Virus record (IMG/VR): IMGVR_UViG_3300048588_000136
Span: 1 to 64,000 of that record
Length of the DNA: 64,000 nucleotides
Source: a virus
Strand: one strand, 5' to 3'
The notes beneath the pieces are model-generated. The model made no database searches and was not told the DNA's origin. It saw only the letters and a list, made by a program, of their open reading frames with translations. Made by a program: the position numbers and the translations under genes. Of the stretch, positions 1 through 3,224 are shown in pieces (positions within the stretch are counted from its first letter, which is position 1; every line of letters starts with the position of its first letter).

Positions 1-1770
1 ATAAAAACCTATGGCGATTTATTTACCGGCGGCGGTGGCGCTACGTTGGGCGCACTGACTGCCGGACTAACGCCACTGTGGGGCAATGAGCTAGATCCGG
101 CCATTGCTGAGGTTGGCAATTACAATCTGGGTGGCCATATCCGTGTCGGGGATGTGTTGGAACAGAACCCACGCAATTACGAACGGGTTGACTTTATGCA
201 CGCCAGCCCGCCTTGCACCCGTGCTAGTGTTGCAAATGGCAGCGCCGAAGTCAATGAGGACGGGCTGAAAGAATCGCCACTTGATATTGCGCTGGCCAAC
301 AAGTGCATTGAGTTTGTGGAAACGCTGCTGCCAGAAATTTTTACGCTTGAAAATGTTTGGGGCTACCGCAAGTTTCAATCATGGCAGGGTGGCCGCAAGT
401 GCGAAGGTATACAGTCAGCGCTTTACCGGCTTGGGTATTGGGTGAGCGTGGAGCATGTGAACTTTGCCGATTTTGGTGTTCCGCAGACGCGCAAACGCAT
501 GATTGTACGTGCCGTGCGTGGCGGCTGGGTGCCACACTTGCCCCAGCCCGTGCCGTGGATTGGTTGGTATGAGGCGATCAGCGATATTTTAGACACACTG
601 CCGGAAAGCCAATTTGCGCCGTGGCAGCTTGCGAGACTAGAACCCAGTTTGCGATTGATGATTGACACTTATCAGGCAGAAAGAAATGAGGGCTATTCGG
701 ATGAATCGATTTCCATTAAAGTTTTGCAAATTTTGCGAGAAAAGGTTGGAACGGAAGCAATACTCGAATGGGGAGCTAGAGTCACCCAAAGATTTCAATC
801 GGAGAAAGTATTGCGACCGCGCCTGCATGGCGAAAGCATACGAACAGACTGCACCAAGTGTTCCGATGAACGAGGACAATGCCCATTATTATTCACGGAA
901 ATTTGTAAAAGATGGGGAGTGCGAGATTTGCGGGGCACAGAATGCGAGCGATGTGCATCACAAAAATGGAGATTGGACAAACAATACACTAGAGAATTTG
1001 CAGCGTATTTGTCGAAGCTGTCATATGAAAATCCACAATCCTCGACCGACATGTTCGGTGGAGGGGTGCAGCAATCCGCACGAATCGAAGGGCTATTGCA
1101 ACAAACACTATCATCGTTTCAAGAAATATGGAGATCCACTGTTCTCGAAAATCAAAACAGTAGATCACAAGAAGTCTCCGACGATTACCCAGGCAGTAAT
1201 AGACGCACGGGCAAAGACAAAGAAATGGGACATTTCATCCGCCCTGATTTCCCGCAATCAAAGAGTTCAACGACGGAAAAAAGCCTAGCCCTACTCGTCT
1301 CCAACGCCAAGACCGAATACAGCGATGGCACACGGCAAGGCGATGACCCCGCTTTTACCGTCACCGGTGAAAGCAACGGGCGAGTGAAGGCGTTTTTGAT
1401 GGGCAAGAACCAAGACAAGTTTGGCGACGGCATACGCTATGCCGTCGAACCGGCGCAAACCATCGGTGCAAATGAGCATGGTAGCAAGGCGTTTATCGCT
1501 GACCAACTAAATGGCGGACGTGATTCAACCGTTCGCTTGTCGGAAGAGCCGGTATTTACGATTACCAACTATAGCACAAAACATCCTGCTCCGAGAGCCT
1601 TTGATGGTGGCCGTGTCGTCGCCATGACGCCAAGAGCGTTAGCGCGGTTCCAATCGTTCCCAGACAGCTACGTTCTGCCCGACAGCAAAACACTAGCCGC
1701 CAAAATCATCGGCAATGCCGTATGTCCGCTGGGCTACCAACGTATTGTGGAGGGCCTATGCAATTTGTAG
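1..1770 (+). CDS. DNA (cytosine-5) methyltransferase, 5'-truncated by the window edge, with a large in-frame insertion
   Basis: Frame is open from base 1 (IKTYGDLFTGGGG = motif I). Also SPPC (IV), ENV (VI), PQTRKR (VIII), R-FQSFPD (IX) and IGNAV (X). Confidence 0.93.
   Translation: MKTYGDLFTGGGGATLGALTAGLTPLWGNELDPAIAEVGNYNLGGHIRVGDVLEQNPRNYERVDFMHASPPCTRASVANGSAEVNEDGLKESPLDIALANKCIEFVETLLPEIFTLENVWGYRKFQSWQGGRKCEGIQSALYRLGYWVSVEHVNFADFGVPQTRKRMIVRAVRGGWVPHLPQPVPWIGWYEAISDILDTLPESQFAPWQLARLEPSLRLMIDTYQAERNEGYSDESISIKVLQILREKVGTEAILEWGARVTQRFQSEKVLRPRLHGESIRTDCTKCSDERGQCPLLFTEICKRWGVRDLRGTECERCASQKWRLDKQYTREFAAYLSKLSYENPQSSTDMFGGGVQQSARIEGLLQQTLSSFQEIWRSTVLENQNSRSQEVSDDYPGSNRRTGKDKEMGHFIRPDFPQSKSSTTEKSLALLVSNAKTEYSDGTRQGDDPAFTVTGESNGRVKAFLMGKNQDKFGDGIRYAVEPAQTIGANEHGSKAFIADQLNGGRDSTVRLSEEPVFTITNYSTKHPAPRAFDGGRVVAMTPRALARFQSFPDSYVLPDSKTLAAKIIGNAVCPLGYQRIVEGLCNL
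686..1288 (+). CDS. HNH endonuclease with Zn-finger motifs, nested in an alternate frame of the MTase
   Basis: CKFC, KYCDRAC, CEICG..DVHHKNGDWTNNTLENLQRICRSCH (HNH), CSVEGC..GYCNKHY. ATG at 686 follows purine-rich AGAAAGAA. Confidence 0.88.
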   Translation: MRAIRMNRFPLKFCKFCEKRLERKQYSNGELESPKDFNRRKYCDRACMAKAYEQTAPSVPMNEDNAHYYSRKFVKDGECEICGAQNASDVHHKNGDWTNNTLENLQRICRSCHMKIHNPRPTCSVEGCSNPHESKGYCNKHYHRFKKYGDPLFSKIKTVDHKKSPTITQAVIDARAKTKKWDISSALISRNQRVQRRKKA

Positions 1771-1958
1771 ACTTCCCCCCGTCGCCCCGTGTTGTTGCCC
1801 CAACGCCGCACGACAGCGCCGAGCAACAGATGCGCTGGATGCTGCTCGATATGCACCGCTACTGGTGGCAGGCGACCGAACACCGCAACGTAGACGACCG
1901 CAGCAGATTGACGGCGGAAATTCGGCGTGAGTGGATAGAGCAAGGTGGCAGTCGATGA
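1758..1958 (+). CDS. hypothetical protein
   Basis: ATG after GGAGGG, overlaps MTase stop and next start. Confidence 0.55.
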   Translation: MQFVDFPPSPRVVAPTPHDSAEQQMRWMLLDMHRYWWQATEHRNVDDRSRLTAEIRREWIEQGGSR

Positions 1959-2257
1959 CGCAGCCTATCAGAACCGGCTACCACGCCCAACGGCGCCCCA
2001 AGCGCAACCCGGCGCCGTTAGGGCTGACTAACGCTGAGTGGCGCATTGTACAGGCTATTTGCAACGGGTGTGACTCACGGGCAGAGCTGGCCGAGCGGTT
2101 CGGGTTGAGCCGCCGCACGATTGACACGCATACGCACAACATTGAAACGAAGCTAAAGACAGATAATCGGCTTGGTGTAGTGCTGCGTGTGCTACATGAT
2201 GACAACGCCCGCCGGTTGTGTTGGACAGGGCTGCGAATTGAGGAGGTATCGACATGA
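1955..2257 (+). CDS. LuxR/GerE-type HTH transcriptional regulator
   Basis: LTNAEWRIVQAI..RAELAERFGLSRRTIDTHTHNIETKL matches the LuxR C-terminal HTH. Confidence 0.85.
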   Translation: MTQPIRTGYHAQRRPKRNPAPLGLTNAEWRIVQAICNGCDSRAELAERFGLSRRTIDTHTHNIETKLKTDNRLGVVLRVLHDDNARRLCWTGLRIEEVST

Positions 2258-2408
2258 ACAACATTAATCAGCAACGTCTCGCCGATTGTCACCGTCAGTG
2301 CGCAGAGTGGCGGCGCAGCGCCTGTGCCGGATGGCTCGTGGCGCTAGTCGGCTGGGCGACGGCCGTAGGGCTGGCAGTGTGGGCGATGCCCAGGACGGGG
2401 TGGTGAGT

Positions 2409-3224
2409 ATGCTAATCAATGATCATTTTCAGAACTTCAAAAGCTATAACATTCCGCGGGCGCAGCTTGTCGTTGCCGATATTCCGTATAACATAGGCAA
2501 CGACGCTTACGGTAGCAACCCGCAGTGGTATGTGGACGGCGACAACAAGAACGGCGAAAGTGAGCTGGCCGGTAAATCGTTTTTTGATACTGATGAGAAT
2601 TTCAAGCCGACAGAGTTCATGCATTTCTGTAGCAAGCTCATGATCAAGGAGCCGAAAGAGCGCGGCAAGGCTCCATGTATGATCGTCTTCTGCTCGTTTG
2701 AACAGCAGTTCTACCTGATTGAGCTTGCACGCAAGTATGGCATCAACAACTACATCAATCTGGTTTTTCGTAAGAAGTTTAGCGCGCAGGTACTGAAGGC
2801 TAACATGCGGGTTGTTGGTAACGCTGAGTACGGTCTGTTGCTCTACCGTGACAAGCTGCCAAAGTTCAATAACAACGGCAAGATGATCTTCAATGTCATG
2901 GAATGGGAGGATGACCGGGATGAACTCTACCGGAAGATTCATCCGACACAGAAACCGGTAGCCTTGCTGGAACGGTTGATTAATATCTTCACAGATCCCG
3001 GCGATGTGGTAATTGATCCGTGCGCCGGCAGTGGGTCAACGTTGATTGCAGCGCACAACCTGGGACGTAAGGGATACGGCTTTGAAATCAAAAAGAACTT
3101 TTATGTAGAGGCAAACGCTTGGATAGCCCATAATGAGCAGGTACGCGCCGAAATCAAGACGACCGGCTATTCGCGTACCTTGGCAGAAGCGCAGAACCCT
3201 GGGCAGGCGTTTTTGTTTCAGTAG
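2409..3224 (+). CDS. site-specific DNA methyltransferase (N6-A/N4-C, beta class)
   Basis: DIPY catalytic motif, HPTQKPVALLERLI, DPCAGSGST SAM-binding motif. Confidence 0.93.
   Translation: MLINDHFQNFKSYNIPRAQLVVADIPYNIGNDAYGSNPQWYVDGDNKNGESELAGKSFFDTDENFKPTEFMHFCSKLMIKEPKERGKAPCMIVFCSFEQQFYLIELARKYGINNYINLVFRKKFSAQVLKANMRVVGNAEYGLLLYRDKLPKFNNNGKMIFNVMEWEDDRDELYRKIHPTQKPVALLERLINIFTDPGDVVIDPCAGSGSTLIAAHNLGRKGYGFEIKKNFYVEANAWIAHNEQVRAEIKTTGYSRTLAEAQNPGQAFLFQ

Follow-up and report, generated by a model that had tools for sequence, protein, structure and literature searches.

An HNH endonuclease gene nested out of frame within an uninterrupted viral C5-methyltransferase gene

How can a gene hold a second gene in its interior, in another reading frame, and still be read from one end to the other? 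The question is raised by the first lines of a 64,000-nucleotide (nt) stretch of viral DNA, bases 1-64000 of the 89,357-base IMG/VR record IMGVR_UViG_3300048588_000136, which has 127-base direct terminal repeats; we refer to the whole of this stretch as the window. At its left end a gene for a C5 cytosine DNA methyltransferase contains the complete open reading frame (ORF) of an HNH endonuclease. A preliminary description made from the sequence alone had proposed that the HNH gene is nested out of frame in an uninterrupted methyltransferase ORF, and this is what we find, with the nuclease in frame +2 (686-1288) lying within a methyltransferase ORF in frame +1 (1-1770). We consider it probable that this is a homing-type HNH cassette that remains unspliced and is translated through in the frame of its host.

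Anatomy of the insert

The frame +1 ORF matches the C5 DNA methylase family PF00145 (E 3.5e-34) in two stretches split by the insert. The methyltransferase motifs on both sides of the insert, which we take to include those named VIII, IX, and X, share one frame, and columns that are invariant or nearly invariant among C5-methyltransferases are preserved in the alignment of the window protein. The methyltransferase begins (GTG/ATG; MGMAG-IKTYGD..) 15 nt ahead of window base 1, which places its start at the opposite end of the record; its GTG is L003:1486, and the record is circularly permuted.

The insert is missing from methyltransferases of 348-418 amino acids (aa) whose N-terminal 215 residues are 84-86% identical to those of the window protein, and insert-free alleles were also recovered as DNA (L049-L051, L053, and L055). 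Alignment with these homologues, the check that the preliminary description had proposed, fixes the 3' edge at 1287/1288 and confines the 5' edge to 664-685. The 3' junction is exact, with identity to the insert-free alleles restarting at GCC CTA CTC GTC.., and it follows that the HNH stop codon is composed of TA from the insert and the G of the host GCC. The 5' junction falls somewhere in its interval, after ..LARLEPSLRLMI. The insert-free relatives also place the site where it had been proposed to lie, between 'WQLARL..LRLMI' (after motif VIII) and the repeated modules resembling a target-recognition domain (TRD). The earlier estimate of a ~210-aa insert was right about an in-frame insertion and slightly long, the length being ~208 codons.

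Table 1. Features of the nested locus (window positions unless a locus is named)
Feature	Position	Strand	Details
C5 cytosine DNA methyltransferase ORF, uninterrupted	1..1770	+	Frame +1, 589 aa, open at 5' end
N-terminal catalytic part of methyltransferase	1..663	+	Up to ..PWQLARLEPSLRLMI; 84-86% identity to insert-free homologues
Inserted cassette, ~624 nt = 208 host-frame codons	664..1287	+	DNA and protein alignment with insert-free alleles
HNH endonuclease ORF	686..1288	+	Frame +2, 200 codons from ATG 686
GAGGG, Shine-Dalgarno-like	688..692	+	8 nt before ATG 701
Four-Cys zinc ribbon, HNH N-terminus	725..826	+	C14, C17, C43, C47; invariant in 22-sequence alignment
HNH (beta-beta-alpha-Me) core	920..1036	+	C79, C82, H91, H92, N99/N100, N104, C109, C112, H113, H117
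C-terminal zinc finger	1052..1108	+	C123, C128, C138, H141; 22-sequence alignment and model
HNH stop codon TAG across 3' junction	1286..1288	+	TA from insert; G is first base of host GCC
C-terminal part of methyltransferase	1288..1770	+	Repeated TRD-like modules, motif IX (..MTPRALARFQSFPD), motif X (GNAV); frame of the N-terminal part
Upstream hairpin (majority-site relatives)	L006, L009-L012, L014-L016, L018, L020, L021, L023; e.g. L011:2954-2977		By-eye drawing

The G+C content is 0.44-0.47 across 601-1300, against 0.505-0.565 (segments within 1-600), 0.545 at 501-700, and 0.52-0.56 in 1201-1700. In an AlphaFold2 model of the methyltransferase both parts of the core that flank the insert are confident, with block-mean pLDDT (predicted local distance difference test) of 80-99 for residues 1-200 and 89-97 for residues ~540-589, and the insert is not: the peptide that it encodes in the host frame is modeled as helices of low confidence (pLDDT ~30-70, residues ~222-430). 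The TRD region is also modeled with low confidence, because it is variable in the alignment. Searches with the host-frame insert peptide returned no Pfam (E <= 0.1) or PHROG family match.

The nested nuclease

The HNH ORF occupies 603 of the ~624 nt of the insert. Frame +2 is open over 662..1288 (208 aa), beginning at TTG 662; ATG 686 lines up with the start that 21 relatives conserve, with ATG 701 as an alternative. In a start-codon survey in which L014 was mis-anchored by the pattern, a start codon stands 12 codons ahead of the first Cys in 21 of 23 rows, and the window has ATG codons 13 and 8 ahead.

The predicted protein matches PHROG 1271 'HNH endonuclease' at E 1.3e-16, as well as 15 further HNH PHROGs; the Pfam families HNH and HNH_3 are matched at 17.4-17.5 bits (E 0.004-0.005), under their gathering scores. 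The HNH catalytic residues and the zinc ligands are all invariant across 22 sequences. Beyond the C-terminal finger the protein continues in a tail of ~45 residues that is specific to the window-type lineage, being common to the same-site relative L048 described below and to the called proteins P0271 and P0272, and that is predicted to form a single long helix. The HNH model has a pLDDT of 82.9. Structural comparison of model residues 58-120 with VIA-align gave Z values of 5.6 for GVE2 HNH, 5.2 for McrA, 4.8 for IscB HNH, and 3.7 for I-HmuI, values that are modest and refer to spans of 50-63 residues. Foldseek with the HNH model returned no match at E <= 0.001, and a profile search of solved structures gave weak matches only, the best being DotN (E 0.004), with I-HmuI at E 0.71. 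Judged by its conserved residues, the nuclease looks functional.

A host frame kept open

The host frame contains no stop codon across the insert, against 14.67 +/- 2.38 expected from 5000 synonymous-codon shuffles that preserve the HNH protein and its codon usage. The shuffle minimum was 6 host-frame stops, and 0/5000 shuffles reached zero; the third frame has 13 stops over the same interval. A host-frame stop arises when T at an HNH third position is followed by a codon starting AA, AG, or GA, and in the window T precedes none of 70 such codons, compared with 50 of 137 other codons. The same holds in L048 (0/65 in stop-creating contexts vs 53/133 elsewhere) and across 24 pooled loci (0/1228 vs 790/2804), although the pooled count restates that there are no stops and the loci are related and therefore not 24 independent trials. 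Stop avoidance across homologous inserts, which the preliminary description had singled out for examination, is complete: far from being commonly stopped, the host frame is open in 24/24 loci. The open host frame is far beyond chance.

Selection and distribution at the window site

A relative at the same site is found in L048, a metagenome contig of 21.5 kb on which P0001 is fully encoded. It carries the cassette at the window's site, with the HNH ORF intact and the host frame open, in a methyltransferase whose N-terminal part is only 60% identical (72% at the nucleotide level). The closest methyltransferases are thus without the insert and a more distant one has it at the same position, and this patchy distribution is the reason for reading the element as a homing one.

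Comparison of the two copies identifies the frame on which selection acts. The HNH frame is 74% identical between them (139/189), against 44% for the host-frame reading (94/216). In the N-terminal flank, differences between the window and L048 are distributed 63/51/121 over host codon positions 1/2/3, and inside the insert they are distributed 36/31/91 over HNH codon positions 1/2/3; in family pairs with identity above 80%, HNH position 3 accounts for 52-59% of the differences. Because differences in the insert are concentrated on the HNH wobble position, it is the nuclease that is the protein under purifying selection there. The host-frame peptide appears mostly to follow along, constrained only to stay open.

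Small shares of the sequence occur in four sequencing runs, with no RNA run listed; two of these runs, in which stretches without cover carry no meaning, provided further views of the junctions. A contig of 151 letters in run X1 is identical to 1177-1326 and spans the 3' junction; the run is labeled RNA-Seq and is 'probably DNA', so it is uninformative on splicing. In run X4 two contigs (depth 3 and 5.9) span both junctions at ~87-91% identity, and their 30-letter loose ends, counted by hand, are identical to the window at 18/30 and 21/30 positions, which hints weakly that a more diverged methyltransferase may contain a near copy of the insert. Relative to the window, an X4 contig has one base added after 673 and one dropped at 683; the two changes compensate each other, and between them three host-frame codons immediately ahead of the HNH start are rewritten.

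The sequence around the 5' junction has features of its own. Given ..GKYGDN in insert-free alleles, we considered whether the 5' part of the insert (..EGYSDE; ..EEYGDN in L048) is host derived; we rejected this and assigned these codons to the element, because the same codons of L048 hold the conserved HNH start. The beginning of the insert in the host frame (694-705; ~2586-2600 in L048) resembles a motif of the flanking TRD modules, K/T-E/K-Y/F-S/G-D-G/N, which recurs at 1315-1326 and of which TEYSDG, KYGDN, and KFGDG are examples flanking the site; the likeness could be due to chance, to microhomology at insertion, or to mimicry. The last 8 host codons before the insert (640-663, EPSLRLMI) are far more diverged from the insert-free PEELRTML (L049-L051) than is the rest of the flank, and they resemble DPELLKII of L048. 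Such divergence would fit either co-conversion of the flank with the element or loss of the nuclease target.

A lineage nested in C5-methyltransferases

The HNH lineage extends well beyond this site. A tblastn search of GenBank phages with the HNH protein gave one good match, within an annotated 'DNA-cytosine methyltransferase' of Staphylococcus phage CUB-EPI_14 (45% identical, E 1e-43), in the same +1 phase and at a site just before motif IX. The host frame is open there also (stop-creating contexts 0/71 vs 33/88), and CUB-EPI_14 is the only carrier of this lineage among the GenBank phage matches listed. A blastn search of GenBank phages with 1-1800 gave no match.

Scanning IMG/VR with two HNH proteins as queries returned 23 loci, among which L004/L005 and L007/L008 look like duplicates. 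In 23/23 the HNH ORF lies inside a longer open ORF whose frame is one base upstream, and in 23/23 the remaining frame is closed. We scanned 24 host ORFs (from 22 of the 23 IMG/VR loci, with L005 left out, plus the window and L001), and all 24 are PF00145. In 21/24 rows the HNH stop falls in the motif IX codons (..VRRLT..) or a few codons ahead of them; we call this the majority site. Other sites are seen in the window, in L026 (stop at host residue 548/593, directly before motif X, ..GYGNAIV), and in L025 (stop at host residue 316/460, earlier in the variable region), and the lineage thus occupies at least four positions without any change of phase. When the window HNH alone was the query, a second IMG/VR scan returned 21 loci, all partial (<= 72 query residues), and no close window-type relative.

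Protein catalogues show the same lineage from the side of the host frame. With the host-frame insert reading as query, HMMER matched 358 cluster representatives at E <= 0.001 and 108 at <= 1e-10, the best 150 of the 358 being 193-930 aa long; it is evidently the read-through protein that gene callers report. In a word-based protein search the host-frame insert yielded 503 candidates, none significant. The HNH protein itself found 58 called proteins, mostly on short contigs, P0271 and P0272 among them. Taken by sequence, this is a distinct and widespread lineage of an arrangement that has already been published, apparently restricted to C5-methyltransferases and present at several sites within them, between which it has moved.

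Several relatives show variations in structure. In L004, L006-L024, and L001 the last HNH codons and the stop (TGA/TAA) overlie the host motif IX codons (..V-R-R-L-T..), the stop being formed across the Leu-Thr codons in many majority-site rows, and the nuclease ORF therefore ends in host sequence. Longer HNH ORFs with a second copy of the C-terminal Cys/His finger occur at L006:191-811 and L009:2977-3633 (207 and 219 aa). The called HNH protein P0298 continues in frame into ..RIRKLTPLER, which is methyltransferase motif IX; an in-frame variant, a copy with a frameshift, or misassembly may account for this.

Upstream of the nuclease, majority-site relatives have an inverted repeat (GATACCTT..AAGGTATC and variants) that forms a hairpin ~25-45 nt before the HNH start. 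When drawn by eye, 63% of its cells are paired, compared with 32-46% in slid controls, and 9/500 shuffles reach 63%, which lends it moderate support; RNAalifold found no consensus structure upstream of the HNH starts of 17 loci. The hairpin could serve translation control, could be a nuclease site, or could arise incidentally from the host codons. No counterpart is present in the window (z +1.13).

Proposed mechanism and alternatives

We hypothesize that the linker joining the catalytic domain (motifs I-VIII) of the methyltransferase to its target-recognition region received an in-phase insertion of a selfish HNH cassette. The cassette would stay in, and ribosomes would read the methyltransferase straight across it, adding a linker of ~208 residues that is predicted to be poorly structured and mostly helical, while selection would purge every codon combination that creates a host-frame stop. 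The nuclease would be a separate product of this mRNA, started internally at ATG 686 or ATG 701 in a frame shifted by one base, and would end at the stop codon completed by the first host base. It would presumably cut insert-free methyltransferase alleles, after which repair would copy the cassette in. We infer, then, an mRNA that is not spliced, internal initiation on it, cleavage followed by homing, and a methyltransferase that is active. The preliminary description had likewise envisaged a homing-type element that spares its host by an open frame instead of by splicing, a proposal that fits the stop avoidance, the patchiness, the switch in selection phase, and the lack of an intron or intein match. 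Its characterization of the strategy as little described does not hold, as the strategy was published in 2025 (PMC11855218).

Some observations weigh against this reading. ATG 686 has no clear Shine-Dalgarno sequence, just AGG (674-676) and a purine run, and a strict Shine-Dalgarno core precedes just 9/24 family starts, although this is more than the 13.5% of positions that have one in the same host ORFs. The insert (74% nucleotide identity between the window and L048) shows no greater conservation than the N-terminal flank (72%), and this pair alone therefore carries no indication of recent transfer. The window is missing ~32 codons (one TRD-like module) that its closest insert-free relatives have at the site, which means either that there was no clean insertion into such an allele or that the recipient differed. 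The specificity or activity of the methyltransferase could be altered. Finally, an Rfam search of 1-3000 at E <= 10 found no intron family, the sole match being a chance plastid one (E 4.1), but Rfam holds described introns only and is to that extent limited against an unrecognised ribozyme.

The alternative that survives best, though we give it only a slim chance, is that nuclease and methyltransferase are functionally coupled, as a one-gene restriction-modification or addiction module, or that the host-frame linker has been co-opted. An equally slender prospect is a more specific form, an obligately overprinted parasite specialized on C5-methyltransferases, in which the methyltransferase would protect the carrier while unmethylated competitors or insert-free alleles would be cut. 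Coupling draws on the finding of this HNH lineage only inside C5-methyltransferase genes (24/24), at four or more positions and always in the same phase. Close pairs, moreover, show slightly more variation at HNH position 2, where the host codon has its wobble base, than at position 1 (83 vs 67; 187 vs 153), a weak hint of some constraint on the host frame, although these pair counts are not independent. Against this, the host-frame peptide is poorly conserved relative to the nuclease, belongs to no family, and has no confident fold, and the closest relatives do without the insert altogether. Survivorship can also explain the restriction to methyltransferases, since their genes, besides being dispensable, can accommodate insertions in a linker.

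Phage group I introns often contain HNH genes, and the insert might be an unrecognised self-splicing intron that carries the HNH ORF, with a spliced mRNA and an open host frame that is secondary. The curated families of Rfam need not include such an intron, and the majority-site hairpin could be read as a P1-like pairing. We nevertheless regard an intron as unlikely: efficient splicing would leave no reason for stop avoidance, yet avoidance is complete in 24/24 loci, and in 24/24 the host motifs on either side of the insert share a frame. The HNH ORF also fills so much of the insert that there is no space for a ribozyme core outside it, and beyond the lack of an Rfam intron match, RNA at the window's 5' junction folds no better than shuffles (z +1.13). 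The 2025 paper (PMC11855218) likewise describes its elements as without intron signal.

A programmed +1 ribosomal frameshift, yielding a fusion of the N-terminal methyltransferase part to the HNH protein instead of free HNH, is very unlikely. Such a shift would agree with an HNH frame that is +1 to the host frame in every locus and with the weak ribosome-binding site at ATG 686. The HNH frame, however, is closed just upstream by TGA TGA (656-661), the start codon keeps its distance from the first Cys in nearly all rows of the survey, Shine-Dalgarno cores are enriched in the family, and inspection of 662-700 by eye recognized no known slippery motif.

Inteins with out-of-frame endonucleases do exist, as two preprints describe (bioRxiv 10.1101/2025.01.02.630785; 10.64898/2026.09.14.751524), but that the insert is one is scarcely credible. 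The host-frame peptide matches no Pfam family at E <= 0.1 (intein or Hint included), and it is predicted to be all-helical at low confidence and not a Hint fold. Its ends (..MI|DTY and ..KSL|A, the stroke marking the junction) lack a terminal His-Asn as well as a Cys, Ser, or Thr at +1. Its evolution follows from that of the HNH frame, and at ~208 residues it is wholly overlapped by the HNH ORF, which leaves no separately constrained splicing domain. The preliminary description had seen neither intein termini nor an obvious group I core, and the database searches and the end residues agree with it on both counts.

Downstream of the methyltransferase the window encodes a LuxR-type helix-turn-helix gene (PF00196, E 4.8e-08; 1931-2257) and then an N6/N4 methyltransferase without an insert (PF01555, E 7.6e-29; 2286-3224), the former lying between the two methyltransferase genes. 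A promoter scan found no sigma-70-like promoter on the + strand in 1-2300.

Relation to known systems

In actinophage DNA methylases this arrangement has been reported under the name ShiLan domain (Gosselin et al. 2023, PMC9957025) and was later termed a 'hidden HNH endonuclease' (Arsenault, Gosselin & Gogarten 2025, PMC11855218). The latter paper, which contains no experiments, describes a stop-free methylase frame, a patchy distribution, no intron or intein signal, an HNH stop at the 3' edge, and a low-confidence in-frame peptide. The window element has in common with the ShiLan domain the stop-free methylase frame, absence of the insert from close relatives, lack of intron or intein signal, an in-frame peptide with no family and a low-confidence helical model, and the HNH stop at the 3' edge. 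The ShiLan paper also mentions that the first 11 residues of its insert resemble the residues after the site.

A hidden HNH pair is annotated as gp54/gp55 of phage Applejack in a genome announcement (PMC12613952). As in the window, the annotated HNH in Applejack (PP978873.1) is +1 to the host frame, and stop-creating contexts are avoided (0/54 vs 27/153). The Applejack host is an N6/N4 methylase (PF01555), whereas that of the window is a C5 methylase (PF00145), and between gp55 and the window HNH only the HNH core aligns (19/51 identical, E 4e-4). The ShiLan HNH is said to be in the 'third frame' in PMC11855218; we had considered frame offset as a difference from the published elements and dropped it, as the Applejack record shows the same +1. 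The tblastn matches listed for the window HNH among GenBank phages include no actinophage methylase. The ShiLan in-frame query gave 9 BLASTP matches according to the same paper (PMC11855218), compared with the 358 cluster representatives matched by the host-frame reading here, and set against ShiLan-type elements the present lineage has several insertion sites. By sequence, then, this is the same arrangement as the ShiLan type in a different lineage. Our literature search found no description of this C5-methyltransferase HNH lineage, although the repository and supplements of PMC11855218, which lay outside the search, may list such cases.

Other homing elements and split methyltransferases offer partial parallels. 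Phage HNH homing endonucleases of the I-HmuI type are intron-borne or free-standing, or are genes that split a host gene. The window element resembles them as a phage-borne HNH with zinc modules that is patchy in conserved genes, and I-HmuI was among the structural matches; those elements, however, are spliced out of the RNA or leave the host as two ORFs, whereas here the host ORF is single and would be read through. The inteins with out-of-frame endonucleases are alike in that an in-frame insertion has a homing nuclease written over it in a different frame, but they carry a Hint splicing domain that excises the insert, and none is detectable in the window insert. M.AquI and M.EcoHK31I are naturally split, heterodimeric C5 methyltransferases. 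In them a break is tolerated between motif VIII and the TRD, the same place as the window's insertion site; they consist of two polypeptides, whereas the window enzyme would be one chain with an added linker.

Implications

The arrangement was already in print in 2025, and the window does not establish a new principle. It is a well-supported addition to a third way for homing genes to reside inside coding genes, namely by being translated through, besides RNA splicing and protein splicing. Of extra interest are the unusual site in the window, the stop codon completed by the host, the switch in selection phase across the junctions, and the apparent restriction to C5-methyltransferases. If nuclease and methyltransferase were indeed coupled, one gene would behave as a minimal restriction-modification or addiction module. 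More generally, the lineage provides a system for asking how overprinted selfish genes arise, how much insertion the hinge of a methyltransferase tolerates, and in what way nested nuclease genes escape annotation pipelines.

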